A DNA stretch of 64,000 nt from Eubacteriales bacterium (GCA_045594705.1 JAZNZB010000038.1:20234-84233), one strand, 5' to 3'. Shown: positions 1-60,821, counted from the first letter of the stretch. Numbers and translations are program-made. The notes: a model not told the origin generated them from the sequence alone.

Positions 1-118
1 CAGCCTCCGGAGTGGTCTGCTCATCACCTGTGCTACCGGGATCGCATGCAGCAAACTGCAGCAGCATCACAAAGCAAAGGCAGAGTGCAAAAACAGAAAT
101 GAGTTTTTTTGCATTCAT
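1..118 (-). CDS. N-terminal fragment of a putative lipoprotein (gene continues past the window start)
   Basis: Minus-strand ATG at 118 reads MNAKKLISVFALCLCFVMLLQFAAC-DPGSTGDEQTTPEA: basic n-region, hydrophobic core, FAAC lipobox. Preceded by a canonical promoter at 152-180. Absent from the ORF track because it is truncated. Confidence 0.55.
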   Translation of the reverse strand, partial: MNAKKLISVFALCLCFVMLLQFAACDPGSTGDEQTTPEA

Positions 119-303: not shown

Positions 304-1839
304 TCAGTCTCTCTTTTTTGCAACGAATGCAACGCCCAGCAGTGCGATCAGTGCAGCTGCGGGAGCTGCTACGACAGCGCCGCAACCGGACTTTTCAGCC
401 TCGGTGGTCTGCTCTTGGCTCTCAGTCTCGCTTTGGTCTGCCGAAGGCTCTTCCGTTTCGGGAGCATCGGTCTTTGGAGGCTTGGTTTCCTTTTCGGTCG
501 TCTCGGGCAATGCACCAAGCAGATCGATCAGATAATCCTTTGCATACTGCTCTGCGTCCTCGATGGTGCGGAAGCATGCAATGTACGCAATGTCGTAGTG
601 CTTCAATTCCTCGTCAGTATTGTTCACGTTCTGAATATCCATACGGATCATATTGACTCTGCCCTGCCAATCAAGGTCGTCGGTCAGATCCAGAACACCC
701 ATGCACCATTCATCGCCAAAATCATATTCGGCAATATCGATCTCACAGCTGCAATCGGGCTGTGCACTCAGATTCTTGCCTGCACTGTAGAAAACAAGGC
801 CGGATTCAGCATAGCAGGCTCTTGTGAGAATCGCGATCACGGGGAAATCTGCAGCCTCATAGGACACGGCCACCTTGGGAGAGAAAATGATATAACCCGA
901 AGCGGTCAGCGCGGTTGCCTTCATCGTACCGTCCTCGTTGACGGCAAGGTCGATATTCGAGCTCTGGAACTGGTTGAACTGCTCCTTGGCAGAATTCCAG
1001 ATCAATGCAGGCTGACCTTCGGGAACGGTGGAAGAATCCGCGATAGGCGCAAAGTTGTTGCGGTTTTCCTCGGGCTCCATGCTGTCCTCACCAAAAGGAA
1101 CCTCGCCCTGGAACTTGCTGATGTTCGCTCCGATGGAAGAACCGGACTCGGTAGAATAGAAGGAAATACCCACGTATGCACCGTCTGCGCAGTAAGTATC
1201 CAGAGTCTCGTCCGCTAACTTGGTCACGTCCTCAAACTTGGTTCCGCACAGATAGAAGGCATAGCCCGTACCTGTATACTCTACCTCAAAGGTATAGGTT
1301 TCCTGTCCCTGCTCGTTGACCGGGATAGTGACTTGCTGCTGGCTGAACAGCGTGTATCCTCTGTCGTCATTGAGATAGTGGAACTGCGCAACAGCAGCGC
1401 CTTCGCCTGCTCCGCGGATCAGCACGGAAACGCCCTCGCCGTATCCCTTCTGACCGGGTGCGAAGATCTCTTTGCTGTGCAGAGAGATGCCAACCCAGTG
1501 GTCACTGCCTTCATAAGCAAAATCGGTTACGGTGAATTCCAAGGAAATGGATCTGCCGTTACCTGCTGCGTTGGTATCCTTGAGATTATAGGGGGTCTTG
1601 GTATGAATGTGGGTATAGGGGGTGTTATTGGTATAGTCTGCAGAATCCAACACAAGGCCCTTGTCTACTTCATAGTGAAAACCGCAATAAGGTCTGTAGC
1701 TATCGGGATCCTGATAGTCGTCCGCAGCGCGGGTTGCAACCCAGTCACCTTCAACCGCTGCTGCACCGGGAATGATCATCACGGACGCAACGGACAGAAT
1801 CATCACTGCTGTCAAAGCCAAAACAAGAATTTTTTTCAT
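304..1839 (-). CDS. Secreted, C-terminally anchored two-domain protein, uncharacterised family (paralog A)
   Basis: 511-aa ORF with GGAG RBS. Signal peptide MKKILVLALTAVMILSVASVMIIPGAAA, mature start VEGDWVATRAADDY. Blocks shared with the three neighbours (LIRGAG, KFQGEVPFGEDS, SYEAADFP, DIAYIACFRTIEDAEQYAKDY), P/T/E linker, tail EKSGCGAVVAAPAAALIALLGVAFVAKKRD. Confidence 0.9.
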   Translation of the reverse strand: MKKILVLALTAVMILSVASVMIIPGAAAVEGDWVATRAADDYQDPDSYRPYCGFHYEVDKGLVLDSADYTNNTPYTHIHTKTPYNLKDTNAAGNGRSISLEFTVTDFAYEGSDHWVGISLHSKEIFAPGQKGYGEGVSVLIRGAGEGAAVAQFHYLNDDRGYTLFSQQQVTIPVNEQGQETYTFEVEYTGTGYAFYLCGTKFEDVTKLADETLDTYCADGAYVGISFYSTESGSSIGANISKFQGEVPFGEDSMEPEENRNNFAPIADSSTVPEGQPALIWNSAKEQFNQFQSSNIDLAVNEDGTMKATALTASGYIIFSPKVAVSYEAADFPVIAILTRACYAESGLVFYSAGKNLSAQPDCSCEIDIAEYDFGDEWCMGVLDLTDDLDWQGRVNMIRMDIQNVNNTDEELKHYDIAYIACFRTIEDAEQYAKDYLIDLLGALPETTEKETKPPKTDAPETEEPSADQSETESQEQTTEAEKSGCGAVVAAPAAALIALLGVAFVAKKRD

Positions 1840-1878
1840 TTTGTCTCTCCTTGAATAGGAATTATTGAATACACATTT

Positions 1879-1907
1879 ATTATATCACTTTTTCATTTTT
1901 CTGTAAA
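1879..1907 (-). promoter_or_regulatory. sigma-A type promoter of paralog A (TTTACA-N17-TATAAT, TG-extended -10)
   Basis: Minus strand: CACCATTTACA gaaaaatgaaaaagtga TATAAT. The same layout precedes all four paralogs. Confidence 0.6.
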
Positions 1908-1943
1908 TGGTGACATTCCACAAATATGTGTCCCCGTTTCGTG

Positions 1944-1980
1944 CAAAATAACAAGGGCTGACGCCAAAGCGTCAGCCCTT
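1944..1980 (-). terminator. Rho-independent terminator of paralog B
   Basis: AAGGGCTGACGC/GCGTCAGCCCTT stem (1953-1964 / 1969-1980) followed by a T-rich tract on the minus strand, after the stop at 1995. Confidence 0.7.
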
Positions 1981-1994
1981 AAAATAGTGATATC

Positions 1995-3542
1995 TTAGTC
2001 CTTCTTTTTTGCAACGAATGCAACGCCGACAAATGCAACCAGTGCTGCAACGGGAGCGATCGCTACAGACTTGCAGCCGCCGGACTGCTCTGCATCGGTG
2101 GAAACTTCCTCGGAGGGAATCTCTTCGGTGGGAGCATCGGTCTTTGCCTCAGTCGTGGGAGCTTCGGTGGTGGGCTCTTCGGTAGGCTTTTCGGTGGTCT
2201 CGGGCAGCTTGCCAAGCAGTGCTACAAGAGTATCCTTTGCATACTGCTCTGCTTCCTCGGCAGAACGGAATGCACCGAAGAATGCAATGTCAAAGCTCTT
2301 CATAGAATCATCTGTGTAATCGATGTTATAGAAGTCGAGACGGAGACCGTTCATCTTTCCTTCCCAGTCGGGGTCTTCGTTCAAGTCAACAATAGACATG
2401 CCCCAGCCTTCGCCAAGATCGACCTCATACATGTCGAAATCACAGTAGTTCTGCGAGCCAACGCCCAGCGTCTTACCTGACATATAGTAGAATCTTCCGG
2501 ATTCTGCATTACAGTTCTTGTAAAGAACAGCAAGATACGGGAAATCGGATGCCTCATAGGTATAATCCATGTTAGGTCCGAAGTTAATGTAGGGAGAAGG
2601 AGCGTTGGCGGCAATGGTTACTATACCGTTTTCCTGAATGGTATAATCACCGTTGCTGAGAGAAACCTTATCATACTGCTCCATCTTACCATCCCACTTG
2701 ATTGCGGGCTGACCCGCGGGAACGTTGGAGGAATCAATGATCTCCGCAACCTTAGTAACGTTGGGTTCGGGCTCAGCACTATCTTCACCATAAGGAACAT
2801 CGCCCTGGAACTCAGTAATCAAGAAAGATGCAGGGGTTTCGATCTCCTGGGTCATAAGAGTGATGCCGAGGTATGCACCGTCAGCGCACTTTTCGTCCAA
2901 AATTCTGTTGAGCTCGCCGGTAGAATCGGAGAACTCAGTGCCGCAAAGGTTCATTACATACTCGCTGCCATTATGTCTGATCGAGAAGGAATATTCCTCC
3001 TGGCCGGCTTCATTGAGTGTGGGATAGACAGTGCCTTCGGTAAACATCTTGAAGATGTTGTTGTCCTGGTCTACGTAGCAGGGCTGACCCGTAGTAGCGC
3101 CGTTACCAAAACCACGCATCAGGATGCAGAGGCCGGAACCGTAATTGGTGTTACCCTGTGCAACCTTATCCTCGCTGTTAAGGGTGATTGCGATCCAGTG
3201 GTCACAGTCGCCATACGCATACTCGGTAATGGTAAACTTAACAGAAAGCGCGTTTCCGTTACCGTCAGCATCGGGGTCCTTCAAATTATAGGGCTTTCTC
3301 GTATTGACTTGCACGTAAGGTGCGCAGTTAGTAAAGTCTGGCGAAATGACTTGGAATCCCTCGGTGGTATACTTGTAACCGGCAGCGGGGGTGTAGTGTT
3401 CCTCATCTTCGTAACCGTCGGCAGATCTCGTTGTAATAAAATCACCTTCAACAAGCTCTGCAGCAGAGGTGGTGGTTGCAAGTACAGTCAGTGTAGAAAT
3501 AGCCATGGTCAGTACAAGCAACATAGTCATCAATTTTTTCAT
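1995..3542 (-). CDS. Secreted, C-terminally anchored two-domain protein, uncharacterised family (paralog B)
   Basis: Start moved to the internal ATG at 3542 (MKKLMTMLLVLTMAIS...), which has an AGGAG RBS and a promoter at 3588-3616. Signal peptide, mature LVEGDFITTRSADGYEDE, family blocks, tail EQSGGCKSVAIAPVAALVAFVGVAFVAKKKD. Confidence 0.9.
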   Translation of the reverse strand: MKKLMTMLLVLTMAISTLTVLATTTSAAELVEGDFITTRSADGYEDEEHYTPAAGYKYTTEGFQVISPDFTNCAPYVQVNTRKPYNLKDPDADGNGNALSVKFTITEYAYGDCDHWIAITLNSEDKVAQGNTNYGSGLCILMRGFGNGATTGQPCYVDQDNNIFKMFTEGTVYPTLNEAGQEEYSFSIRHNGSEYVMNLCGTEFSDSTGELNRILDEKCADGAYLGITLMTQEIETPASFLITEFQGDVPYGEDSAEPEPNVTKVAEIIDSSNVPAGQPAIKWDGKMEQYDKVSLSNGDYTIQENGIVTIAANAPSPYINFGPNMDYTYEASDFPYLAVLYKNCNAESGRFYYMSGKTLGVGSQNYCDFDMYEVDLGEGWGMSIVDLNEDPDWEGKMNGLRLDFYNIDYTDDSMKSFDIAFFGAFRSAEEAEQYAKDTLVALLGKLPETTEKPTEEPTTEAPTTEAKTDAPTEEIPSEEVSTDAEQSGGCKSVAIAPVAALVAFVGVAFVAKKKD

Positions 3543-3587
3543 TCTAACTTCACTCCTTTTCTCATAAAAGTTATCGATTACTATTAT

Positions 3588-3616
3588 ATTATATCTCTTA
3601 AAATTAATTATGTAAA
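3588..3616 (-). promoter_or_regulatory. sigma-A type promoter of paralog B
   Basis: Minus strand: CACTATTTACA taattaattttaagaga TATAAT. Confidence 0.6.
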
Positions 3617-3664
3617 TAGTGAACCTACACAAATATTCTGACGCAAAACTATAAAATAATACAA

Positions 3665-3694
3665 TAAAAAAGGGGCTGCCGAAATCGGCAGCCC
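3665..3694 (-). terminator. Rho-independent terminator of paralog C
   Basis: GGGCTGCCGA/TCGGCAGCCC stem followed by TTTTTT on the minus strand, after the stop at 3721. Confidence 0.75.
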
Positions 3695-3720
3695 AAACGG
3701 TTAATAAATTCAGTCAAGAA

Positions 3721-5280
3721 TCAGTCCTTCTTTTTTGCAACGAATGCAACACCGAGAAGTGCGATCAGTGCAACTGCGGGAGCGATGACTACGGACTTGC
3801 ATCCACCGGACTGTTCAGCATCGGTGGTAGCTTCCTCGGAAGGATTCTCTTCCGTAGGAGCATCGGTCTTTGCCTCGGTCGTGGGAGCTTCGGTGGTAGG
3901 CTCTTCGGTAGGCTTTTCAGTCGTCTCGGGCATCTTGCCAAGCAGAGCAATCAGATAATCCTTTGCGTACTGAACGGCTTCCTCTTCGGTGCGGAATGCT
4001 GCAAAGAAAGCAACGTCAAAGTTTGCAGTTTCTTCATCGGTATAATCCACATCTTTGAAGTCAAGTCTCATACCATTGATTCTGCCCTCCCATTCGGGAT
4101 CATCCGTCAGGTCAAGAACAGACAGACCCCAGCCTTCGCCAAAGTCATAATCGTCATACATGATATCCATCAGGCAATCGGAATTTGCACCCAGGGTTCT
4201 GCCGGAATAGTAATACATCTGTCCATCGAGATCTAAGCAATTTCTGGTCAAAGCAACAACGATCGGGAAATCGGAAGCTTCGTAAGAAATATCGTTTTTG
4301 AGGTTGAAACTGATGTAAGGACCGGTACCGTTTGCTTTCAGGGATACAATACCGCTTTCCTGAACTGTATAGTCAGCATTGGAAACAGAAATCTTATCAT
4401 AATACTCAGCCTTACCATCCCAAATAACAGCAGGCTGGCCTGCGGGAACGGTTGAGGAATCAGCGATCTCAGCAAAATTCTTCACGTTAGCTTCGGGATC
4501 TGCACTGTCTTCACCGTAAGGAACAGCGCCCTGGAATTCAGTGATCACAAAGGATGCGGGAGTTTCGATCTCGGTGGTCATCAGAGTAATACCGAGATAT
4601 GCACCTTCAGCACACTGCTCGTCAAAAACTCTATCCAGATTTCCGTCGGGATCGGAAAATTCAACACCGCACAGATTCATCACGTATTTGGTGCCGTCAT
4701 GCTTGATCGAGAAGGTATATTCTTCCTGGCCGTCATCGTTCAAAGTAGGATTGATCTGGCCCTGCGTGAAGAGAGAGAACTTATTGTTCTCTTTGTCAGA
4801 ATAGTGAGGCTGTCCGGTAGCAGCACCGTTACCTGCACCGCGGATCAGAATGCAAAGGCCGGAGCCGTAAGCGGGATTACCCTGGGTTGCAGTAGGCTCG
4901 CTGTTGAGAGTGATAGCGATCCACTCGTCCTTGTTGTTGTACTCGCCGCCATAAGCGAATTCCTGAACGGTGAATTTTACGGAAAGCGCATTGCCGTTCT
5001 CATCAGCATTAGGTGCCTTGAGATCATATGCTTCTTTTGTATGCGCTTGAATGTAGGGGCTGCAATTGGTAAAATCGGGAGCAACCGTCTGGAAGCCCTC
5101 GGTTGTATACGTGTAGCCTGCAGCGGGCGTATAATCGGTAACACCCTCTTCGTATGCATCGCCTGCTCTGGAGGTTACCCAGTCGCCTTCTACCTCGGCT
5201 GCATTTGCGGGGATTGCCAGAACAGTCATAGTTGCCAGCAACAGACACATTGCGAGCATGATTGTCAATAATTTTTTCAT
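3721..5280 (-). CDS. Secreted, C-terminally anchored two-domain protein, uncharacterised family (paralog C)
   Basis: Start moved to ATG at 5280 (MKKLLTIMLAMCLLLATMTVLAIPANA) with AGGAG RBS. Mature EVEGDWVTSRAGDAYEE, family blocks, tail EQSGGCKSVVIAPAVALIALLGVAFVAKKKD. Confidence 0.9.
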   Translation of the reverse strand: MKKLLTIMLAMCLLLATMTVLAIPANAAEVEGDWVTSRAGDAYEEGVTDYTPAAGYTYTTEGFQTVAPDFTNCSPYIQAHTKEAYDLKAPNADENGNALSVKFTVQEFAYGGEYNNKDEWIAITLNSEPTATQGNPAYGSGLCILIRGAGNGAATGQPHYSDKENNKFSLFTQGQINPTLNDDGQEEYTFSIKHDGTKYVMNLCGVEFSDPDGNLDRVFDEQCAEGAYLGITLMTTEIETPASFVITEFQGAVPYGEDSADPEANVKNFAEIADSSTVPAGQPAVIWDGKAEYYDKISVSNADYTVQESGIVSLKANGTGPYISFNLKNDISYEASDFPIVVALTRNCLDLDGQMYYYSGRTLGANSDCLMDIMYDDYDFGEGWGLSVLDLTDDPEWEGRINGMRLDFKDVDYTDEETANFDVAFFAAFRTEEEAVQYAKDYLIALLGKMPETTEKPTEEPTTEAPTTEAKTDAPTEENPSEEATTDAEQSGGCKSVVIAPAVALIALLGVAFVAKKKD

Positions 5281-5320
5281 GTTTTTTCTCCTTTCCTTAT
5301 GAAATAATTCTGACTTAATT

Positions 5321-5349
5321 ATTATAACATCAATCCACACCGCTGTAAA
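5321..5349 (-). promoter_or_regulatory. sigma-A type promoter of paralog C
   Basis: Minus strand: CACTATTTACA gcggtgtggattgatgt TATAAT. Confidence 0.6.
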
Positions 5350-5404
5350 TAGTGAATTTGAACAAATCAGCCTTCTCTAAAACAACACTTTCAACAATGA
5401 CATA

Positions 5405-5429
5405 GGGGCAGTCGCGATGCGACTGCCCC
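5405..5429 (-). terminator. Hairpin terminator of paralog D
   Basis: GGGGCAGTCGC/GCGACTGCCCC perfect stem after the stop at 5459. The trailing T tract is weak. Confidence 0.55.
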
Positions 5430-5458
5430 TGATTCGGGTCACTATATTCAGTTATGAA

Positions 5459-7048
5459 TTAGTCCTTCTTCTTTGCTACGAAAGCAACGCCCAGAAGAGC
5501 AACCAGAGCTACTACGGGAGCAGCAATGATGGAGCCGCAGCCGGACTTTTCAGCCTCGGTGGTAGCTTCCTCGGTGGGAGCCTCAGTGGAGGGAGCGGTG
5601 GTTGCGGGAGCATCGGTAGTGGGAGCCTCGGTCTGTTCCTCAGTGGTGGGTTCCTCAGTGGTAACTTCTTCTGCATTGTAGCCCTTAGAGGTCAGCCAAG
5701 CCTGGGTGTAAGCGGTAGCCTCTTCAACGGAGCGGAATGCGCCGTAGAAAGCGATATCGAAGTTGTTGTACTCTTCGTTGGTAATATCGTCTGCATCAAA
5801 GTCGTAACCAATACGGATGCTGTTGATTCTGCCTTCCCAACCACCAATAGCGGTCTCATCATCATCGTCGGTGTAATCGGAGAAGTCAATGATACCCATG
5901 GTCCAGCCGCCACCGAAGTCATACTCGGTGGGATCCCAGGTTTCGCTGTAGGTGTTCTCAGCGCTCAGGATGTCACCTGCGCAGTAGTAAACGTTACCCT
6001 GGTTAGCCCAGCAGTTTCTGGTCAGAACTGCGATGTAGGGGAAGTCAGCTGCTTCGTAGGAAACCTCGGACTTAACGCCCAACGTGATATAGGGGGACTG
6101 AGTCTGTGCGGTAACCTTAACGGAACCGTCCTCGTTGATCTCGTGTACGCCACCTGCTACGCTGATCTTTCTGAAGTCTCTGAGGGTAGAATCCCACAGA
6201 ACTGCAGGCTCGTTAGCGGGGATGTTTTCGGAGGGAGCGATGGGAGCCTTAGCACGGAGGTCCTCTTCGGGAACTGCGGAGTCGTCACCTACAGGGATAT
6301 CGCCCTGCCACTCGGTGATAGCAAAGGAAATCTTCGAATCAGCAACACCGGTCTGAGTGCAGATATTTACATAGCAGCCTTCAGCAAACACTTCATCAAA
6401 GTGAGCGTTCATCTTATCGTCGCCAACAAATTCGTGACCGTTTACAGCAACTACGTAGCCGCCATCAGCATACTTAACAGTGAAGGTGTACTCTTCCTGA
6501 TCATTGTCGTTCATAGGAACTTCAATCGTGGGGAAAGCAGCAGTAAGAGGAACCCAGTTAGCGTCCTTATCAACGTAGAAGGGCTGAGCCTGGGCGGAGC
6601 CGTAGCCGCCGCCACGAATCAGAATGCAAAGACCCTCGCCGTATTCAGCACTGGGGGGAGCAGACATATTGCCGCTGGACAGGTTGAAGGAGATCCACTG
6701 GTCCTTGCCTTCGCCGCCGTCATAAGCGTACTCAAGAATGGTCATCTTGAGGTTAACGGAATAACCGTTACCATCGTTATTAGCCTTGAGATCTACAGGG
6801 TTCTTGAGGTGTACCTGAACGAAGGGAGTATTGTTGGGAGCGTACTCGGGAGGATCAACAACAAAGCCCAGTTCGGGATCGTAGTGGTAGCCAGCTGCGG
6901 GGCAGTAGCTGCCTTCGTCTTCATAGTCGTCAGCACTTCTGGAGGTTACCCAGTCACCTTCGAGCGCTGCGGAGGTAGAAACTACCATAGCAGCTGCCAG
7001 GGACAGAACCATCAGAGAAGCGAGCAGCACGGAAAGAAATCTTTTCAT
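5459..7048 (-). CDS. Secreted, C-terminally anchored two-domain protein, uncharacterised family (paralog D)
   Basis: 529-aa ORF, AGGAG RBS. Signal peptide MKRFLSVLLASLMVLSLAAAMVVSTSAA, mature LEGDWVTSRSADDYEDE, family blocks (LIRGGG, EWQGDIPVGDDS, SYEAADFP, FDIAFYGAFRSVEEATAY), tail EKSGCGSIIAAPVVALVALLGVAFVAKKKD. Confidence 0.9.
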   Translation of the reverse strand: MKRFLSVLLASLMVLSLAAAMVVSTSAALEGDWVTSRSADDYEDEGSYCPAAGYHYDPELGFVVDPPEYAPNNTPFVQVHLKNPVDLKANNDGNGYSVNLKMTILEYAYDGGEGKDQWISFNLSSGNMSAPPSAEYGEGLCILIRGGGYGSAQAQPFYVDKDANWVPLTAAFPTIEVPMNDNDQEEYTFTVKYADGGYVVAVNGHEFVGDDKMNAHFDEVFAEGCYVNICTQTGVADSKISFAITEWQGDIPVGDDSAVPEEDLRAKAPIAPSENIPANEPAVLWDSTLRDFRKISVAGGVHEINEDGSVKVTAQTQSPYITLGVKSEVSYEAADFPYIAVLTRNCWANQGNVYYCAGDILSAENTYSETWDPTEYDFGGGWTMGIIDFSDYTDDDDETAIGGWEGRINSIRIGYDFDADDITNEEYNNFDIAFYGAFRSVEEATAYTQAWLTSKGYNAEEVTTEEPTTEEQTEAPTTDAPATTAPSTEAPTEEATTEAEKSGCGSIIAAPVVALVALLGVAFVAKKKD

Positions 7049-7103
7049 GATGAAAATCTCCTTTGATAAAAATAGTTTTGGTATCGCATATATGCGCAGT
7101 ATT

Positions 7104-7132
7104 ATTATAGCACAATTGTCAAATTCCGTAAA
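7104..7132 (-). promoter_or_regulatory. sigma-A type promoter of paralog D
   Basis: Minus strand: GCCTATTTACG gaatttgacaattgtgc TATAAT. Confidence 0.55.
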
Positions 7133-7203
7133 TAGGCACTTTTACGAAAAATCACTTAATTTACTGGTATTATTGCACAAAACAAGTTCACATCGGCATC
7201 ACA

Positions 7204-9300
7204 TTACAAAAGCGTCTCATAGTAGTATATAGGCAGTGCGCTCCAGCCGTGACAAAGGCTTGCGGCGTGCCCGAAATCCGAAAGGCCGATGATGGTCTCC
7301 CAGAAGGTGGTTGCACCGTTGCGCAACATATGAAAATAGTCACGGTCCAGCTCGTCAATGATCACCCCTGCGTATGCTTCCCTGTCATATGATAGCAGCG
7401 CGTCAAAGCGGAAGGAGTTCATGCTCAGCGTATTGGGATGCACCGTATATCCGCAATTGTCTTTTCCGTTGGTAGCGAGAATACGCAAAATATTGGTCTT
7501 ATCAACGCCATCTGCCGCGCCGCACAGCATGCAAAGTGCATTGGTCAGCACGCTGTATTCCCCTCTGCAACGGTTTTCAAACGACTCGAACAGGCGAGTC
7601 TCGGGATTATAGAATTCCCTTGCGATCGCTGCGTTGACGCGCTTTGAAAGCTCGCGGTATTCCCCTGCCTCTCGGGTCTTGCCGAGCGCATCACAGATCT
7701 TTGCCATATGCACAAGCGCAAGCGAGAAAAAGGCGTTGAGCGGTGCTTCCATGCTGCGGTTTTGCTCAAAGAAATGGCCGTTCATGCCGGGACTCCATTC
7801 ATAGAAGTTCCAGTATCCTCCCTCACCGTAGAAATTCTCGATCAGGCCGCTTTCCTGCAGCTTTCCGATAAACGTATGGATGATGGTATCCAGCACGGGA
7901 TAGCACTCCTCTGCGAGCGTCACGTCGCCCGTGTAGCGAATGTATTCCTCCATCTGGATAAAATACACGGTTGAGAAGGACGGAATGGGAAAATCCTTGC
8001 CTGCGGGATAGCAAAGCGTCAGAATGCCGTCCGGGCGCAAGCCCTTGGAGATCAATTTCAGATTGGCGCGCGGGAAATCCTTTTCGCCAAAGGCATAATA
8101 GCCGCAAAGCATCTGATTGCGCGAGTCCATGCAATAGAGTGCCTGCTCTCTCCAGGGGCAGTCCTCATAGTGCTCGTGCATGCATTGCAGCAGCGTATTG
8201 GCACAGACCTCGTAGATGGTATTCTGCAAGAGATTTCCCTTTTCGAATTTCTTGGCGGTCACGGGATACAGCGTAGGTCTCAGACCTGCGTAATGCACGG
8301 TAAATTCGGTGGCGTTGACAAAGAACTGCACGTATCGGCAGCCAAAGCGTCGGAAGGTATGCAGGTATTGGTTTCTTCCCTTTTTGGCTCTGTAATCGGC
8401 CGAGAATCCTCGCACGGACGTGCGGCATCTGCCGTCGGCCAGGTGCTCTCCGTAGCCGATCTCGATCTGACAGTCGTGCGGTACTTCAATGTCAAAGTCC
8501 AAAAATCCCGCCCATTCCTGTCCGAGATCCACAATAAAGAAGATGCCCTGCGCCACGTCCTCTGTCTTAAAATGCACCGGCTTGTCAAAGCCGAAGAATC
8601 CGCGCATATCCGAGATCTGCTCGGGATAACGGTGACGAAGCGCTGCGTGTTGCATCATCTTATCGGGGCTTGTATGCTGCTTTTCCACGTAATCAAAAAG
8701 GCCTTGCATACACATCTGCGCTTGTGTTCTCGGAGCAAGCTCCAGCATTTTGACGGGTCGCAGCGTAAAATCGGTGGAGATCATGGGCATGAGCACACTC
8801 GGCGCAAAGCCATCGGTCACATCCCGTTCGATAAAGCCATCGTACGAGGTAGCGTCGTAGTGATAGGTATAGCCCAGCTGCCCCGAGATCAGCTGTCTGA
8901 CGTGCGAAATGTAGTCGCGCGACAAGCGCGAAAGCGTGCTTTCATCCGAGTAACAGATGGGAGTATCCTGCTCACGGATCTCGAAGATCACACCCGGATC
9001 ACCGTGAATGTAGGTCTGCGTGTCGTCGCCATAGTACCACACTACGATGACCAGTTTGTTCTTGCCTGCCTTGACAAATTTGGTGACGTCCACGCGGTCA
9101 CAGACCTTGTAGGTGGGATAATCGGCATATTGGCCAAAGGCGGCAAGCTCGCCGTTAAGGTACACGGTATAATTGGAGTCTGCGGCTATGGTCAGCGTAT
9201 AAGGTGCTTGCCCGCTTGCATCAAATTCCGCAATGAAGTCCGCAAATTCATCCGACAGGAGCTCCCCTGCCTTCCAGATCCATTTAGCTTTCTGAAACAT
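7204..9300 (-). CDS. GH78-like (alpha-L-rhamnosidase-related) six-hairpin glycosidase, cytoplasmic
   Basis: 698 aa. N-terminus MFQKAKWIWKAGE... is typical of the rhamnosidase N-terminal domain, and EDCPWREQALYCMDSRNQ resembles the GH78 DCPxRE(R) motif. No signal peptide. Family call is from motif memory only. Confidence 0.6.
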   Translation of the reverse strand: MFQKAKWIWKAGELLSDEFADFIAEFDASGQAPYTLTIAADSNYTVYLNGELAAFGQYADYPTYKVCDRVDVTKFVKAGKNKLVIVVWYYGDDTQTYIHGDPGVIFEIREQDTPICYSDESTLSRLSRDYISHVRQLISGQLGYTYHYDATSYDGFIERDVTDGFAPSVLMPMISTDFTLRPVKMLELAPRTQAQMCMQGLFDYVEKQHTSPDKMMQHAALRHRYPEQISDMRGFFGFDKPVHFKTEDVAQGIFFIVDLGQEWAGFLDFDIEVPHDCQIEIGYGEHLADGRCRTSVRGFSADYRAKKGRNQYLHTFRRFGCRYVQFFVNATEFTVHYAGLRPTLYPVTAKKFEKGNLLQNTIYEVCANTLLQCMHEHYEDCPWREQALYCMDSRNQMLCGYYAFGEKDFPRANLKLISKGLRPDGILTLCYPAGKDFPIPSFSTVYFIQMEEYIRYTGDVTLAEECYPVLDTIIHTFIGKLQESGLIENFYGEGGYWNFYEWSPGMNGHFFEQNRSMEAPLNAFFSLALVHMAKICDALGKTREAGEYRELSKRVNAAIAREFYNPETRLFESFENRCRGEYSVLTNALCMLCGAADGVDKTNILRILATNGKDNCGYTVHPNTLSMNSFRFDALLSYDREAYAGVIIDELDRDYFHMLRNGATTFWETIIGLSDFGHAASLCHGWSALPIYYYETLL

Positions 9301-27296: not shown

Positions 27297-29249
27297 TTAT
27301 TGCACGTATTCTATTTCAACCGAAAGCGCGGTGCTGTCGTATGCGGAGGTTTTGCCCATGTTGACTGCGATCCAGATGCGATCACCCTTCTTAACGGTCA
27401 TCTGAATGCTGCCCTTTCCGACCTCCCCGTACGGTGCATCCACATATCCGTAGCGATCTCCCTGTGTCATTGCTTGCTTTTCATGCATGACGCGATATCG
27501 GATGCCGTCTCCCTCGGGCGAGGTAACGCTTACGTTGAAGGCATACAGGATATTTCCATCCTCGGGCGCTTCAAATACGAGTACTGCATCGTATTGATCC
27601 GGATGCACGGCACTGCTCATAATCAGAGAAAACTCGGATTTTCCTTGCCAGCGTTGATTGGCGGCATCAAAGGTCATCTCGTAAAGCTTATCTTTTCCGG
27701 GCTGTGCGCACATATAGTACCAGCCGCCCTTTCCCTGCTCAGTGGAGTATCCACCGGGGAATGAAAACACGCTCTGCGGCTTGTCTACCGCAACGGCGGT
27801 CAGGTCGTTGATCACATGAATGTTAACGTATTCTCCATTGGGAGCAATATTGTAGTACTCGGTTATATACGCATAAGGATTGCCTCTGCGCAGCATCTGG
27901 GAAAGCTTGATTTCCATTTGGATGCTCGTATCCGCAGTATCTATAACAGGGGGCGGATTATCACCAAGCCAGGTGCTTGCCAGCTGCTCCCATACCCATT
28001 TGTAGCTTTCATAATCTGCGTCGATCGTCCAGTTTGCAATGCTGAGATACGTACAGCCACGGGAGTACGCATCCATGCCCTGTTCAAGATACTTTTCAGG
28101 TGTCGCGCCAACCTGGTTCGGGCCATCGATCTCCTGTGCAAGCAGCACGCTTGGAGCAAAGGTTGCATCTGCGTAGTCCATGGAAAATTCGTGCTCGGAA
28201 ATAGGTCCGTCATCGATCCATACCACGTCGGCGTTCTCTGCAAGGTCACCTGCATTGAGCGTGCATCTCAGCAAGGACGCCGCATCAAAGTGGCTGCCGA
28301 ACTGCAAAGCGAGCTTGGACTCGGGTGCTGCATCCTTTTGTACCTTGGCAAGTGCGTCAATAAAGCCCTTGAGCTTTTGATGGCGGAACTGATACCAAAG
28401 CACGCCAAGGTTATCCGATGCGGTGCAGGAAGGTGGCTCTACCCGGGAGAAATCAGAATAATTTGTTCCGAGAATGACGTTCAAGGCGGCAATATCACCG
28501 TATTTGTCCTTCAAGAAAGCACGGAAGGCATTCTTGGCAAGATCCGAATAATCATATTCTCCGGCCGGCCAATATTCTGTTTCGGCAAACTGCGTAAATG
28601 CGGGCAGATAAAACAGGATATCGTCACCGTAAAGTGCGTCGTAACGCTTAACTGCATCCTCATAAAATGCCACTGCCGCACCAACGGCACTCTCAGAGCA
28701 AAACGAGATCACTGTACGCATCCCGTCGATTGAGCCCCCCTGGCAAAGATTGCCCGCGGGGTCTCTCTGCATCTGATCAAGGCCGATCACCTTGTCGTCC
28801 GCACGGCGGGTCAGATCGATCGAGATCGCGACCTTGAGCCCCTTGGTCTTGACCACATATTCGATCATGGGATCAAACGCAGAAAAATCGTATTCTCCTG
28901 CCGTCGTTGATTCCACACGACTCCACGGAATGTGCACCTTGATAGCATTAAAGCCGGTCGCAGCTGCAGCGTCAACCGTTTGCTCAAATTGCACCTGCGT
29001 CTGAGACGTAAAATTCCAGATGCGGTAGATATAGTATCTCTCGCCTATCTCTCTCTGTGCTTTCATATCGGTGTTCTCCTGTGTGGTCTCCTCCAAGGAT
29101 TCTGTCGTATCATCGCTTGTCTGGGACAAGGTCGTGGATTCTGTATTGTCCTGTATGGGCTCGTCAGGCACAGGCGTGCACGCAACCGCTCCGAGCACAA
29201 GTGCACCGGGCAGCAGCATGCACAGCAGCTTTCTGATCGTTCCGAACAT
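27297..29249 (-). CDS. Putative lipoprotein glycoside hydrolase (TIM-barrel, GH42/clan GH-A-like)
   Basis: Start set at ATG 29249 (AGGAGG RBS). MFGTIRKLLCMLLPGALVLGAVAC-TPV signal/lipobox. GFNAIKVHIPWSRVESTTAGEYDFSAFDPMIEYVVKTKGLKVAISID resembles the N-terminal barrel strands of GH42/GH35-type enzymes. Family not certain. Confidence 0.6.
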   Translation of the reverse strand: MFGTIRKLLCMLLPGALVLGAVACTPVPDEPIQDNTESTTLSQTSDDTTESLEETTQENTDMKAQREIGERYYIYRIWNFTSQTQVQFEQTVDAAAATGFNAIKVHIPWSRVESTTAGEYDFSAFDPMIEYVVKTKGLKVAISIDLTRRADDKVIGLDQMQRDPAGNLCQGGSIDGMRTVISFCSESAVGAAVAFYEDAVKRYDALYGDDILFYLPAFTQFAETEYWPAGEYDYSDLAKNAFRAFLKDKYGDIAALNVILGTNYSDFSRVEPPSCTASDNLGVLWYQFRHQKLKGFIDALAKVQKDAAPESKLALQFGSHFDAASLLRCTLNAGDLAENADVVWIDDGPISEHEFSMDYADATFAPSVLLAQEIDGPNQVGATPEKYLEQGMDAYSRGCTYLSIANWTIDADYESYKWVWEQLASTWLGDNPPPVIDTADTSIQMEIKLSQMLRRGNPYAYITEYYNIAPNGEYVNIHVINDLTAVAVDKPQSVFSFPGGYSTEQGKGGWYYMCAQPGKDKLYEMTFDAANQRWQGKSEFSLIMSSAVHPDQYDAVLVFEAPEDGNILYAFNVSVTSPEGDGIRYRVMHEKQAMTQGDRYGYVDAPYGEVGKGSIQMTVKKGDRIWIAVNMGKTSAYDSTALSVEIEYVQ

Positions 29250-29271
29250 GCGAACCTCCTGTGATTGGTTT

Positions 29272-30219
29272 TTAATAGAAAGTGGCAACCTCTTGTGCGG
29301 GTTTGGTGGCAAACTCGGTCTTTTCTGCGTAAAGCACGGGACCCGGTCTGCCGTAAAGCTTATGTGATTCTACGCGAATCTTGGCAGTCACAATGGTCCA
29401 ATCGCGCGTTTTGAGGTTGATCGCGGACGGGAAATTGCATACAAGCGCGTTATATTCGATATCATCCGCACAGCAGGTCATGACATGACGACCGATGATC
29501 AGCGAGGACTTGCCAAGCTTGGCATCACGTGCCACAATGCCCTTGAAGCGCACCGTTTTGCCGTGATACTTGTCTGTTTCCTCTGCCAGGTCGCGATACC
29601 AGATCGCGTAATCTTCATCCTTGATGTCAATGATGGGAGCATCAATATCGAAAGGCAGCGGATCCTCAATCTCGTCGTATTCTACGTGCCCGTCGGGATA
29701 ATCGTAGGTGATGGACGCTCTGATGCTGACGCTGCGCACCACACGGTGAATCTCTTCTTTATCAATCACCTCGGGCGTGCGGTTGAGTACGATCATTTCG
29801 CAAGCCTGCAGCTTATCCACCATGAGCTGACGCATGTTGGCGTTGTAGGTCAGGAAGGTGTTGGCGTCCGCAAACATCATGTTCTGGAAAATAAACCAGT
29901 CTGCAGGCAATGCTGCGTACAGTCGGTCAAGCAGCCACATGCCGTTGTATTCAATGATCACGCGATCGATCTTGTGCTTTTTGTAAAGCAGGGTCAGATA
30001 GTCGCGGTTGAGATCCTCGGGATCATCGATCAGTTCAAAATAGCAGTTCTTCCCCCAGAAGCGATCGAGCTCCAGCTCCTCTTCGCCCTCCTCGCACATG
30101 ATGATCAGCGTTTTTTCACCGGAATTGAAGCGTTGATCCTCCATGGATTCCTGGATGATGTGCGTCTTTCCGCCCTCCAGGAAACCGGTAAATAGATATA
30201 CAGGTATTTTTTTTGCCAT
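29272..30219 (-). CDS. Divergent P-loop GTPase related to COG0523, lacking CxCC, with a Cys-Cys-containing C-terminal domain
   Basis: 315 aa. Walker A TGFLEGGKT. Where COG0523 has the GCICC motif there is none. The C-terminal part contains GRHVMTCCADDIEYNALVC. Starts 1 nt after the stop of the upstream COG0523 gene. Confidence 0.7.
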   Translation of the reverse strand: MAKKIPVYLFTGFLEGGKTHIIQESMEDQRFNSGEKTLIIMCEEGEEELELDRFWGKNCYFELIDDPEDLNRDYLTLLYKKHKIDRVIIEYNGMWLLDRLYAALPADWFIFQNMMFADANTFLTYNANMRQLMVDKLQACEMIVLNRTPEVIDKEEIHRVVRSVSIRASITYDYPDGHVEYDEIEDPLPFDIDAPIIDIKDEDYAIWYRDLAEETDKYHGKTVRFKGIVARDAKLGKSSLIIGRHVMTCCADDIEYNALVCNFPSAINLKTRDWTIVTAKIRVESHKLYGRPGPVLYAEKTEFATKPAQEVATFY

Positions 30220-38117: not shown

Positions 38118-39896
38118 TTATTTCATCTGCAAATTCTGCAGCTCCGGTGTATCCGTGAACATGATTACGGGATCGGTATAGCCATCCGATTCAAAGACCA
38201 CGATCTCGTTGTCGCCCGTGTGCAAGAGTGGTGCGGGCAGGTACAGCGTTTTCTGCGGACCTGCGGGATTATAGTAACGGCCGATATTGAAACCGTTGAC
38301 CGTGACAAAACCTTTGTGAAAGCCATCAAGGCGAACGAAGGTATCTTTAGGGGCCTCATCAAGATGCAGATTGCCGCGCAGGAATGCGGGTCCGGAAAAC
38401 CCGTGCTCGGGTGCATAGGTCAGACCGGTCAGATCGTCCATGGTCATGGGGTACATCTCCCAGCCGAAGTGATAACGCTGCCCCAGGCGCACGCCGCCCA
38501 AAATTCCCTTCTTATCCAGCAAATTGATGCCGTAATTAACTCTGCCCATGTTCTCGACCAGAATATCCACCACGGCGGACTCACCGAAATCAAGCGAAAC
38601 GTTGATCTCATCGTTTCGGCGGTCACGCTCCTTGATGCCTGCAAATTGCCCGTTGACAAACACAATGGCGCGGTCGTGCAGCTCACCAAAGCAAAGCGGC
38701 AGCGGCTCAATCGGGCCATGAATGGTGGTGCGATACAGCGTAAAGCCGAAGTCCTGCCCCAGCTGCTCCATGGTTTTGGGGAATGCAGCCCTGACGGGAG
38801 AAGACAGCTTGTCAAGATTCTCAAACAGCTCCGCCTGCTCGGTCAGCGTAAGGTTGCCGTAGGCTGCCTTTTCGGAGTTTTTGACCTCGATTTCGGGCGC
38901 AGGCTTGCCCGTTCTTCGTGCGATCAGATCCTTGACTGCCTCATAAAGCGGGGTGGTATCCCCTGCTTCGGTCAACAGCGCGCGGTAGTCGTAGCTTGTG
39001 ATGGTGGGCTGATACTCGCCCGGATGATTTGCGCCGTTCCAAAAAGCGAAATTGGTGCCGCCATGGAACATATACAAATTAAAGGACGCGCCGAGATCAA
39101 AGAACTTTTCGATCTCGCGCACGATGTCCTCGATGGGTCGCAGCTGCGTGCCCGACTCGTACCAATGGTCAAACCAGCCGTCCCAGAACTCACCGCACAT
39201 CAGAGGGCGATCCTTTTGGAACTCGTTCAAGGTCAAAATCTGCTCGGTATAGCTGCCGAAATTGGCCACGGCCAGCACCTCGGGCAACGTACCGCCGCTC
39301 AGCATCCACTTAGCCGTGCCGTCCGAGGTGAACAGCAGACAATCAATGCCGTTTTCGCGGTAGATATCCACGATCTTTTGCAAATAGACCTTATCGTCGC
39401 CGTAGCTGCCGTACTCATTCTCGACCTGTACCATGATGACGTTGCCGCCGTTGGTGCACAGATGCGGACGGATGCGCGAGAGCAGCTCGCGATAATACGG
39501 CTTTACCTTGGATAGGTACATGGGATCGTCACAGCGCAGCGCAATATCGGGATAAGAGAGCAGCCAGGAAGGAAGTCCACCGAAATCCCATTCGGCACAA
39601 ATGTAAGGCCCCGGACGAAGGATGACGAAAAGACCCAGCTTTTCTGCCGTTTCGATAAATTTCTCAATATCAAGCAGCCCCGAGAAATCAAACTGCCCTT
39701 CCCGTCTCTCGTGCAGATTCCAGCAGGTATAGGTCTCGACCGTATTGAGTCCGCATGCCTTGAGCTTGAGCAGTCTGTCCTCCCATTGCTCGGGCAGGGT
39801 GCGGAAATAATGCACAGCACCCGACAGAATGGTCACGGGCTGACCGTCATAAAGAAATTGTGCGTTTTCGTATGCAAATGTGTGCTTCATATCCAT
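38118..39896 (-). CDS. GH35 beta-galactosidase
   Basis: 592 aa. GAVHYFRTLPEQWEDRLLKLKACGLNTVETYTCWNLHERREGQFDFSG...ILRPGPYICAEWDFGGLPSWLL and VQVENEYGSYG are GH35 signatures. Confidence 0.93.
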   Translation of the reverse strand: MDMKHTFAYENAQFLYDGQPVTILSGAVHYFRTLPEQWEDRLLKLKACGLNTVETYTCWNLHERREGQFDFSGLLDIEKFIETAEKLGLFVILRPGPYICAEWDFGGLPSWLLSYPDIALRCDDPMYLSKVKPYYRELLSRIRPHLCTNGGNVIMVQVENEYGSYGDDKVYLQKIVDIYRENGIDCLLFTSDGTAKWMLSGGTLPEVLAVANFGSYTEQILTLNEFQKDRPLMCGEFWDGWFDHWYESGTQLRPIEDIVREIEKFFDLGASFNLYMFHGGTNFAFWNGANHPGEYQPTITSYDYRALLTEAGDTTPLYEAVKDLIARRTGKPAPEIEVKNSEKAAYGNLTLTEQAELFENLDKLSSPVRAAFPKTMEQLGQDFGFTLYRTTIHGPIEPLPLCFGELHDRAIVFVNGQFAGIKERDRRNDEINVSLDFGESAVVDILVENMGRVNYGINLLDKKGILGGVRLGQRYHFGWEMYPMTMDDLTGLTYAPEHGFSGPAFLRGNLHLDEAPKDTFVRLDGFHKGFVTVNGFNIGRYYNPAGPQKTLYLPAPLLHTGDNEIVVFESDGYTDPVIMFTDTPELQNLQMK

Positions 39897-40647: not shown

Positions 40648-42006
40648 TCAGTAACCGATCACGGTCTGGTAAACGACCTGCGCGTAAATTCTGCTCAGGA
40701 AGTCGTTGGGATGGTTGATATTGTTACCGGTATGGTCGCGGAAGCGCTTGTTCTCCAGAATTCTCTGGCTCATGGTGGTCATCTTGGCGACGGCGCAGGA
40801 CTTACCGTCCTCTACGTAATCTGCTGCAAGCGCTTCAAACACATTCTCAAAGCGGTGCTGATTGCCGTACCAGCCGTTGGTGGCCTCGGGATTGGGAATC
40901 ATGGTTGCCACAAGCAGCATCTCTGCCTCGGGTGCGATCTCATACAGCTTATCCGAGATCTTCTTGATTGCCTTCTGCTCGTTCTTGGGAGAATTTCCTG
41001 CATCGTTCATACCGAATGCCAGCAGGAAGAAATCACAGCCGTACTGCTCTACGAAGGGCTTGACGTATTCGTCAAACTTGTTAAAGCCGTCAGCACTGGT
41101 CCAACCGCCCACGGCGGGATTGATATAGGTAATGGTACCGTTTGTGCCGAACACGGTGTCCTCTGCGGGAGGAACTGCAGCACCGGTAAGGCCGGTGTTG
41201 ACGTACTTGACGGTATAGCCGTACTTCTGCGCCAGGTACTGCGTGAACAGCTGGGTATAGGAGGGTGCGTAAGGATTGGTGCCGGAAAGACCCGACGAGG
41301 ATGCGCCGAAGGTGATGCTGTCGCCATAGAAGATCATGGTAGCATCCTGACCTGCCTCCAGCTTTGCGATCAGCTTTGCAAACTGATTCGAGGTCTCGGG
41401 TACAAAGCCCTCCCAGGTCTGGCTGTGCGTGTAGGTCACGGCGATCTGCCACTGGGTCATCACAACGCCCTCACCCCAATAGGTATAATATTGCTTTCCG
41501 TCATACTTGGTAACAAGCTGTGCGGGCATACCGGGGATCTCGGTTTCGTGATAGTATTCCTCAAAGGTGATGACGGGAATGCGCGTGCCCTCAAGCAGCA
41601 CCAGCTGTCCGTCCACAACGTCATAGTCCTTGCCCTGCTCGTAAACCGTTTTCAGGTCGTAAGAGGTGACGGAAAGAATCTCGTCGGGCGTATACAGCAA
41701 GGACGCCTTGTCGTCCATGCCGACGAACATGACAGTCTCGTTATACATGTACTTGCCCTTCCAGATAGGCTTCATATAGGTATCCAGATAGTAGGTGTCG
41801 TAAGCAAGCAGCTCCTCGGGCTTTTCGGGCTCGGTCTGCTCCTCGGTGGTCTCTTCGGGTGTGGTCTGCTCGGGAGCTGTAGTACCCTCGGGAGCCGTGG
41901 TATCCTCGGGAGTTGTGGTCTCTTCGTTTCCGCCGTCACAGCCGACAAAGCAAACGCCGAGCATCAACATCGCAAGGATCATGGAAAGAAATCTGATCGT
42001 TTTCAT
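40648..42006 (-). CDS. SGNH/GDSL-type hydrolase lipoprotein
   Basis: Start set at ATG 42006 (GGAGG RBS). MKTIRFLSMILAMLMLGVCFVGC-DGG lipobox, T/E/P linker, FYGDSITFG (block I) and LLAFGMNDAG (block III). Confidence 0.8.
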   Translation of the reverse strand: MKTIRFLSMILAMLMLGVCFVGCDGGNEETTTPEDTTAPEGTTAPEQTTPEETTEEQTEPEKPEELLAYDTYYLDTYMKPIWKGKYMYNETVMFVGMDDKASLLYTPDEILSVTSYDLKTVYEQGKDYDVVDGQLVLLEGTRIPVITFEEYYHETEIPGMPAQLVTKYDGKQYYTYWGEGVVMTQWQIAVTYTHSQTWEGFVPETSNQFAKLIAKLEAGQDATMIFYGDSITFGASSSGLSGTNPYAPSYTQLFTQYLAQKYGYTVKYVNTGLTGAAVPPAEDTVFGTNGTITYINPAVGGWTSADGFNKFDEYVKPFVEQYGCDFFLLAFGMNDAGNSPKNEQKAIKKISDKLYEIAPEAEMLLVATMIPNPEATNGWYGNQHRFENVFEALAADYVEDGKSCAVAKMTTMSQRILENKRFRDHTGNNINHPNDFLSRIYAQVVYQTVIGY

Positions 42007-42045
42007 ACGTTCCTCCAAAATGATTATTTTAGTGTTTTGATTTAC

Positions 42046-60356: not shown

Positions 60357-60821
60357 ATGAAAGGTTCTCCCCGCATGAAATTCAAGTCCTTGATCAAAGC
60401 TTTTTTGATACATACCTGTATTTATACAACCGTGGCGTTCGGGGCATCCATGATCTTCATTGCCGCATGCGGCATGACCTCGTTTGCCGTTCCCACGTAT
60501 TTTCTCGTGCTTGCCTTCTGCGCGTTCTTTGCAATGGCCAACGCCGTTTTTGCTCACTCGGGTCTTTCGATCTGGTGGCGTTCGATCCTGCACGCCATCT
60601 TGACGCTGGGCGGCTTTTACTTATGCATTTATTCCAGATATGCGGATATCGGCATGAATCGTGACGCGCTGCTGCTCTTCTCTGTGCTGATGACGCTTTT
60701 GTACGGTGCTTGCATGGGTACGTTTTTGGCAGTCCGCTACGCGCGCCTGCGCAAAAAGGAGCAAAAGGCTTATCAAAGTCAATTTTCAAGTCCCAACAAT
60801 AAAGATCAGAAACGGAGATGA
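60357..60821 (+). CDS. Small integral membrane protein, unknown function
   Basis: 154 aa, four hydrophobic segments and a basic C-tail. The first ATG lacks an RBS; ATG at 60375 (MKFKSLIK) is an alternative start. Confidence 0.6.
   Translation: MKGSPRMKFKSLIKAFLIHTCIYTTVAFGASMIFIAACGMTSFAVPTYFLVLAFCAFFAMANAVFAHSGLSIWWRSILHAILTLGGFYLCIYSRYADIGMNRDALLLFSVLMTLLYGACMGTFLAVRYARLRKKEQKAYQSQFSSPNNKDQKRR

Follow-up and report, generated by a model that had tools for sequence, protein, structure and literature searches.

Four consecutive genes were analysed in a 64,000-nucleotide stretch of DNA from an Eubacteriales bacterium (GCA_045594705.1, JAZNZB010000038.1:20234-84233; the whole stretch is called the window hereafter). 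Based on structure modelling and sequence comparison, we propose, with a probability of roughly 0.6, that these genes encode abundant surface-displayed carbohydrate-binding proteins, namely, adhesins of a lectin-like kind or proteins that capture glycans, in an uncultured gut Clostridium that degrades plant glycans. Sugar binding is proposed because the two domains have the folds of lectins and carbohydrate-binding modules (CBMs), because the module is found in the company of adhesin domains and because the genomic context contains glycan-degrading genes. The family is new at the sequence level, and its parts belong to known kinds. In the proposed mechanism, each protein would be exported through the Sec pathway and cut by signal peptidase I, and its C-terminus would keep it tethered to the membrane with the terminal KKKD in the cytoplasm. 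The segment rich in Pro, Thr and Glu would serve as a stalk across the cell wall, possibly O-glycosylated, and would allow two beta-sandwich domains to bind glycans outside the wall. Old and maintained paralogs would then provide a set of different binding specificities.

The four open reading frames (ORFs) are all on the minus strand at 5459-7048 (copy 4, 529 aa), 3721-5280 (copy 3, 519 aa, the copy used for the structure model), 1995-3542 (copy 2, 515 aa) and 304-1839 (copy 1, 511 aa, the last gene of the array). The ATG starts are taken as correct because the longer TTG or GTG starts sit upstream of the promoters. The copies are true paralogs (42-65% amino acid identity, tblastn E ≤ 1e-117), and no fifth family copy was found in the window using tblastn. 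Every copy comprises an N-terminal signal peptide ending in Ala-x-Ala, two beta domains, the Pro/Thr/Glu-rich segment, a hydrophobic C-terminal helix and KKKD. In copy 3, these parts are the signal peptide (residues 1-28), domain 1 (residues ~29-250, window 4531-5196), domain 2 (residues ~285-448, window 3937-4428), the stalk (residues 449-492) and a Cys-containing tail (residues 493-519). The first-pass annotation, which was made from the sequence alone, had described four secreted paralogs of the same architecture, and the ORFs, identities and signal peptides bear this out. The motifs it had quoted are mostly right; copy 2 (VEGDF, LMRG and TYEASDFP) and copy 1 (YDIAYIACFR) deviate from them. 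Copies 2 and 3 are the closest pair, with 65% identity overall and 91% in the stalk. Judged by these sequences, copy 2 is the most recent duplicate, and the split between copies 2 and 3 is younger than the other duplications. The termini of copy 2 are identical or nearly identical to those of a database protein (P0013, 'hypothetical protein [Ruminococcaceae bacterium]'), and an exact-sequence look-up with copy 1 returned no record.

The fold of both domains was investigated using an AlphaFold2 model of copy 3 built from a 46-sequence alignment (predicted local distance difference test, pLDDT, 85.1; predicted template modelling score, pTM, 0.75). The model contains two all-beta domains, a disordered region (residues ~457-500) and a terminal helix (residues 503-517). 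Domain 1, where pLDDT is mostly > 90, matched the concanavalin A-like (ConA-like) lectin/glucanase jelly roll in a Foldseek search of PDB structures, with probability 1.0, 230-280 aligned columns and a target template modelling score (TM-score) of 0.42-0.55. The matches included the L-lectin module of SraP (4m00 and 4m01), YwfG (7yl4), legume-lectin-like structures (7elv and 5zbt), Emp46p/47p and enzymes of glycoside hydrolase family 16 (GH16); the best-ranked were lectin modules of adhesins. As modelled, domain 1 thus has the fold of the concanavalin A-like lectin/glucanase superfamily and superposes on known members. No sequence-profile match was obtained for domain 1 to any curated family of the ConA-like clan, including legume lectin, Laminin_G_3 and GH16. 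Its invariant residues are G32, G55, Y58, G62, D118, G139, G141, L145 and R147.

Domain 2 was modelled alone with pLDDT 93.4. The top Foldseek match was CBM86 of Roseburia intestinalis Xyn10A (6sgf; E = 4e-7, target TM-score 0.66, probability 1.0), followed by the CBM6 structures 1o8s, 1gmm and 1uy2, which are bound to xylan or cellobiose (E of about 1e-5, TM-score 0.56-0.63); beta-sandwich domains of GH85 enzymes and CBM27 were also matched. The modelled domain 2 is accordingly a galactose-binding-like beta-sandwich that superposes on CBM6 and CBM86. A library of viral structures yielded generic LamG and CBM-like receptor-binding proteins only. In sequence-level searches, the Pfam and NCBIfam scans gave no domain match for the four copies or for 46 family members, and a family profile searched against PDB sequences gave nothing below E = 0.4. 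The earlier view that the proteins belong to no recognisable family by profile therefore holds, but the view that neither domain can be matched does not: at the level of fold only, domain 1 is a ConA-like jelly roll and domain 2 is of the CBM6/CBM86 type.

The first-pass annotation had also suggested counting family members elsewhere. A word-indexed search returned 86 clusters at 90% identity, all named 'hypothetical protein' and all from metagenome-assembled genomes of Clostridia or Ruminococcaceae. When a profile of only the two domains was searched exhaustively, 479 clusters (50% identity) were returned at E ≤ 1e-3, 191 of them at ≤ 1e-30, and most of the 479 have 510-630 aa and the same architecture. 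Other arrangements also occur. The domain pair forms one module inside a 2860-aa protein with LRR_5, MucBP, Big_2, VWA, cohesin and dockerin domains, and members of ~385 aa (P0207, P0217 and P0230) consist of domain 1 and the Cys tail only. Sister strains whose copy 2 is identical carry an additional, fifth gene (382 aa) downstream of the array (L026:13398-14546, L027:11798-12946 and L028:13398-14546); this gene does not occur in the window, where a lipoprotein gene directly follows copy 1.

Related loci were collected by a search with a 16-sequence alignment, taking one genome per species, which yielded 25 loci. All are from uncultured Clostridia, Eubacteriales or Oscillospiraceae; most are labelled as herbivore-gut, and the isolate names mention the gut or faeces of sheep, yak, horse and roe deer. 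The site of the array is fixed. It is preceded by genes for a membrane transporter, MecA, a helicase, aspartate aminotransferase, a radical-SAM protein and, where present, a GH78-like protein, and it is followed by genes for a lipoprotein without Pfam match, an XRE regulator, RuvB, RuvA and YfhO. The number of tandem copies per locus varies from 1 to 6, and closer relatives keep the order of copy types, with the copy-4 type first and the copy-1 type last. In the loci L002 and L005-L016 of close relatives, the family gene next to the GH78-like one is a copy-4-type ortholog (68-77% identical), and copy-1-type orthologs (60-91% identical) occupy the last position in L001-L005 and L010. Positional counterparts across species are 60-91% identical compared with 42-48% between paralogs, which argues that the duplications, except that of copies 2 and 3, are old and have been maintained.

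The expression signals of the array are similarly conserved. The promoters, all on the minus strand, have the form TTTACG-N17-TATAAT at 7104-7132 for copy 4, where the element is kept in the copy-4-type genes of most related loci, and TTTACA-N17-TATAAT at 5321-5349, 3588-3616 and 1879-1907 for copies 3, 2 and 1, respectively. They match the consensus at 10-11 of 12 positions, and three of the four (copies 1, 3 and 4) carry a TG extension. An AAGGAG ribosome-binding site lies 7-10 nt upstream of each ATG in all four copies. The terminator scanner called intrinsic terminators on the minus strand 3' of copy 3 (3673-3694; -20.1 kcal/mol, z = -4.4), copy 2 (1952-1981; -25 kcal/mol, z = -4.75) and copy 1 (262-290; -19.9 kcal/mol, z = -3.05), where z-scores compare the fold energy with that of shuffled sequences. 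The hairpin 3' of copy 4 (5404-5430, minus strand) has a 12-bp G+C-rich stem and a weak U-tract; window positions 5375-5458 fold at -34.6 kcal/mol (z = -5.7), and the scanner did not call this hairpin because the U-tract is not clean. Each copy had been credited with its own promoter, ribosome-binding site and terminator, and all are present, although the hairpin of copy 4 is without a clean U-tract.

In the 25 loci, which are from other genomes, 45 of 54 family genes have TTTACN-N17-TATAAT and AAGGAG in front of them, among them genes for proteins only 25-35% identical. Copy 4 has an effective number of codons of 33.2, the lowest among 26 window genes, and copies 1-3 are at the low end of the window genes (40.6-42.3). 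From these features and their conservation across species, we infer four strongly expressed monocistronic units; the earlier claim of four strong separate units is supported to this extent. No terminator was found by the scanner between the GH78-like gene and copy 4, so some read-through from that gene is possible. In an alignment of 44 family promoters on the -35 element, TTTG occurs ~18 nt upstream, C.A just before the -35 and the TG extension in most. The TTTG, which is nearly invariant, lies approximately at window 1925-1932, 3634-3641, 5367-5374 and 7150-7157 and in 40 promoters elsewhere; it falls within TGTGA-N4-TCAC in copy-1-type genes and may be an UP-element or an activator site. 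A palindrome, GCGCA-N5-6-TGCGA(C/T), was also observed a few bases 3' of the -10 in the 5' untranslated region of copy 4 (window ~7080-7097, minus strand) and in 12 related loci (L002, L005-L011 and L013-L016). Either a 5'-terminal stem-loop with a stabilising role or an operator is conceivable, and because the stem of the palindrome is invariant, covariation cannot separate the two. An Rfam scan of the whole window returned no match.

The C-terminus shows a further conserved pattern. In the alignment, all four copies end in (S/G)GC(G/K)(S/A), a hydrophobic helix and KK(K/R)D, and the wider consensus is G-C-[G/A/K]-S, a Gly/Ala-rich helix and KKK[D/E]. The coding segments lie on the minus strand at 5462-5551 (copy 4, …EKSGCGSIIAAPVVALVALLGVAFVAKKKD), 3724-3813 (copy 3), 1998-2087 (copy 2) and 307-396 (copy 1). 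The tail occurs in 202 of the 231 family members fetched. Among these 202 tails, the Cys is invariant, Gly precedes it in 83% and Ser stands at +2 in 66%; the basic cluster lies 20-25 residues past the Cys, mostly 22, and most often ends in KKKD. The Cys motif is kept even where the preceding linker is unrelated. Six members are truly without the Cys, and their helices are more hydrophobic (Kyte-Doolittle 2.95-3.67 versus a mean of 2.31). The annotated 'C-terminal anchor' is thus present but had been under-read, being a conserved Cys-containing tripartite tail that is common to an unrelated family as well.

That second family was observed in a regular-expression scan of all loci, in which an unrelated NAGPA (phosphodiester glycosidase, PF09992) protein of 1239 aa with the identical tail pattern was found (L024:13154-16873, minus strand). 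In a homology search with this protein, 108 of the 120 best homologs (P0233-P0352), from uncultured Clostridia, carry the Cys tail. The Cys is present in 100% of these tails, Gly directly precedes it in 97% and Ser occupies +2 in 76%, and the basic cluster again follows after 22 residues. Genes of these NAGPA surface proteins often occur in tandem pairs (e.g., L031 10001-15077). Because two unrelated families share one position-specific profile, the tail is considered a modular signal rather than a quirk of one family, and its sequence makes it a good candidate for an undescribed protein-sorting signal. Published Cys-containing tripartite signals consist of a Gly/Ser-rich signature ending in an invariant Cys, followed without spacer by a helix and a basic cluster; lipidation of the Cys and then cleavage by a CPBP protease have been proposed, and the signals are described from Myxococcota, Synergistota, some Proteobacteria and Thermococci, not from Clostridia (bioRxiv 10.1101/2023.06.07.544157; PMC11980579). 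Our literature searches likewise returned no description of a Cys-containing tripartite signal in Clostridia.

By analogy, a less certain step may be added to the proposed mechanism. A pathway resembling that of MYXO-CTERM or Synerg-CTERM would recognise the Gly-Cys at the outer edge of the helix, the Cys would be lipidated, and an intramembrane protease would then remove the helix and leave a C-terminal lipid anchor. Clostridia have no outer membrane. We hold only tentatively, at less than even odds, that the tail is such a new Cys-dependent sorting signal of Clostridia, with lipidation of the Cys and removal of the helix by a dedicated intramembrane protease (CPBP/myxosortase-like or other). 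An alternative, which we also take seriously without thinking it probable, is that the tail is a plain C-terminal transmembrane anchor, the Gly-Cys reflecting local structure or packing or the shared descent of a mobile linker-anchor cassette, with neither processing nor lipidation. A plain anchor would agree with the few members that have an ordinary Cys-less transmembrane helix and so do without the motif, and with two negative results. Firstly, when 16 tails were scanned against NCBIfam release 20, no existing Cys-signal model (MYXO-CTERM, Synerg-CTERM, JDVT-CTERM or CGP-CTERM) scored above its cut-off, the best being Synerg-CTERM with 15.1 versus 22.5. Secondly, no CPBP, rhomboid, exosortase or sortase gene was found in the window or within 10 kb of the loci examined, including four further loci, using Pfam lists; a regular expression for the CPBP motifs (EExxxR … FxxxH … HxxxN) gave only two implausible matches among all ORFs of the window and the 25 loci. 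The absence of a sorting enzyme nearby is regarded as uninformative because such enzymes usually serve many substrates and have their genes elsewhere. A plain anchor is less easily reconciled with a position-specific pattern common to two unrelated families, with its persistence behind wholly different linkers and with helices that are Gly/Ala-rich and weakly hydrophobic, like cleaved sorting signals and unlike the Cys-less members. It also leaves aside how well the architecture fits the Cys-containing tripartite signals as defined in the literature (bioRxiv 10.1101/2023.06.07.544157; PMC11980579).

Below the cut-offs, the tails resemble several known signals, namely, Synerg-CTERM, MYXO-CTERM protein tails, PGF-CTERM S-layer glycoproteins and the helix part of LPXTG/NPXTG anchors. 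The LPXTG or NPXTG pentapeptide is absent before the helix, and only the helix and the basic part are aligned by the Rumino_NPXTG and LPXTG_anchor models, with scores below cut-off except that one tail of a NAGPA protein narrowly exceeds the cut-off of LPXTG_anchor (16.1 versus 15.9). A profile of 73 tails searched against a database of 5.8 billion proteins matched one 57-aa fragment, a 30-residue profile being too short for significance there.

The principal alternative to surface carbohydrate binding is that the proteins form a structural coat like a surface layer (S-layer), that is, very abundant, self-assembling and C-terminally tethered to the membrane through a glycosylated Thr/Pro stalk, as in the haloarchaeal S-layer glycoprotein. 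A coat would agree with the very strong promoter, ribosome-binding site and terminator signals kept in many species, with the codon bias of copy 4, the strongest in the window, and with the fact that each related genome sampled has one copy or more at the same place in the chromosome. The stalk and tail also match weakly the ArtA-dependent C-terminus of haloarchaeal S-layer proteins (TIGR04216; E = 1.5e-6, 26.8 bits versus a 400-bit cut-off), but S-layer models align with nothing beyond the low-complexity stalk and the helix, and no surface-layer homology (SLH) domain or other known S-layer anchoring or assembly domain was detected with Pfam or NCBIfam. Multidomain adhesins also contain the module as a single domain pair, which is easier to explain for a binding module than for a subunit of a lattice, and several diverged paralogs kept side by side, each with its own promoter, are not what a lattice would lead one to expect. 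A coat is hence considered rather unlikely. Far less probable still is that the array encodes surface enzymes, with domain 1 acting as a glycoside hydrolase or transglycosylase from the GH16/ConA-like clan and domain 2 as its CBM: many GH16 structures are among the domain 1 matches (2vy0, 3dgt, 5nbo, 6t2p and 9int), glycanases commonly have a CBM6-like module behind their catalytic domain and the genomic context is rich in glycoside hydrolases, but GH16 catalysis was rejected because the catalytic strand motif E-x-D-x-x-E is absent from the family alignments, and, in addition, domain 1 has D118 as its sole invariant acidic residue, E186 is not kept in the more distant family members, no glycoside hydrolase hidden Markov model (HMM) matched and the best-ranked structural matches are the lectin modules of adhesins.

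Several points weigh against carbohydrate binding at the surface itself. The proposal is drawn from sequences and models, and the fold matches are at 8-14% identity and TM-scores of 0.4-0.66; at such identities, the kind of function (carbohydrate binding) can be inferred, not the specificity. ConA-like and CBM-like beta-sandwiches also serve protein-protein contacts and structural roles. The invariant polar residues are D118 and R147 in domain 1 and D337, D390, R405 and R430 in domain 2. For the tail, the missing sorting enzyme and the sub-threshold scores of the Cys-signal models described above belong to the same side.

The neighbouring genes were surveyed for their bearing on the array. The upstream neighbour is a GH78-like six-hairpin glycosidase gene (7204-9300, minus strand; Bac_rhamnosid6H 4e-25, Bac_rhamnosid 5e-6), the 3' end of which lies 155 nt from copy 4 and which overlaps the radical-SAM gene upstream. 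Its product is without signal peptide and cytoplasmic. The gene adjoins the array in L018 and in those loci of close relatives that extend sufficiently upstream. In the distant loci L020, L022, L023 and L025, it is absent, and a single family member of 830-1027 aa directly follows the radical-SAM gene. The adjoining cytoplasmic GH78-like gene noted in the first-pass annotation is therefore real, but the association is specific to a lineage, and a functional link between this gene and the array was downgraded since the gene is missing from the locus in distant genomes. Downstream, the lipoprotein (~680 aa, lipobox LQFAAC, no Pfam match) is cut by the window edge (1-117, minus strand) and is complete in a related locus (L005:13360-15411). 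A W.G.VNAIRFD motif in its C-terminal domain resembles the one in domain 2, but the profiles of the two domains match only weakly (hhalign probability 38%, E = 3e-4). A YfhO-family membrane protein of the GT-C type is encoded ~5 kb downstream of the array, beyond ruvAB, on the minus strand (L005:18487-21333 and L026:19758-21548); that it might bear on glycosylation of the Thr/Pro stalk is pure speculation.

Elsewhere in the window, glycan-related genes include a GH42/GH14-like gene, a GH35 beta-galactosidase gene and two GDSL esterase genes, one for a lipoprotein (27297-29312, 38118-39896, 40648-42018 and 60818-61681). The GH35, GH42-like and GDSL esterase genes fit an organism that degrades plant polysaccharides. 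Between 16548 and 24857 on the minus strand, three consecutive gene pairs were observed, each comprising a gene for a sigma factor of the extracytoplasmic function type (195-232 aa) and then one for a protein of 616-763 aa that contains BspA-type LRR_5 repeats. All three LRR_5 proteins are alike at the N-terminus (…LLDAIG.ID.D…) and may be anti-sigma factors with leucine-rich-repeat sensor domains.

These results define a sizeable unannotated protein family of ~480 clusters at 50% identity. The conserved expression signals suggest that, in an uncultured lineage of Clostridia from herbivore guts, few surface proteins are expressed more strongly, which gives a handle on how these degraders of plant fibre bind to glycans or capture them. 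In Gram-positive bacteria, anchoring at the surface is understood mainly through sortase and LPXTG signals, N-terminal lipoproteins and SLH domains. For Clostridia, the shared Cys tail offers a candidate new protein-sorting signal that can be tested; if this is true, the lectin-like proteins and the NAGPA proteins would be 'C-terminal lipoproteins', and the myxosortase-type pathway would be extended to Clostridia. An HMM of the tail could be used in genome-wide profiling to locate the processing enzyme, as was done with MYXO-CTERM.

Four known systems are comparable in part with the proteins described here. The haloarchaeal S-layer glycoprotein (PGF-CTERM, ArtA-dependent) has, as here, a Thr/Pro/acidic stalk, a short motif, a helix and a basic end, and weak matches to TIGR04216 and PF18204 were obtained. 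Its resemblance ends there: the Pro-Gly-Phe motif is absent from our tails, the scores are far below cut-off, the host is bacterial and the extracellular domains are unrelated. The Cys-containing tripartite signals MYXO-CTERM and Synerg-CTERM (PMC11980579) have the same architecture as the tail, and both occur on unrelated extracytoplasmic proteins. The tail differs in its basic cluster, in which Lys predominates before a final Asp or Glu, the published signals being rich in Arg; it belongs to Clostridia, its scores with the existing models are below cut-off, and its processing is putative. CBM86 (6sgf) and CBM6 (1gmm, 1o8s and 1uy2) share the beta-sandwich of domain 2 (E = 4e-7 to 2e-5, target TM-score 0.56-0.66) and, like domain 2, come from plant-glycan-degrading gut or cellulolytic Clostridia. 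Compared with these modules, domain 2 is only 11-14% identical and matches no CBM HMM, is longer (~165-190 aa versus ~130 aa), ends in an amphipathic helix and has no attached catalytic domain. Finally, SraP of Staphylococcus aureus (4m00/4m01) and YwfG of Lactococcus (7yl4) have the same ConA-like jelly roll as domain 1 and are also surface-tethered and stalked. At ~9-12% identity to them and without a lectin HMM match, the present proteins carry a C-terminal Cys tail in the position where those adhesins use LPXTG and sortase.

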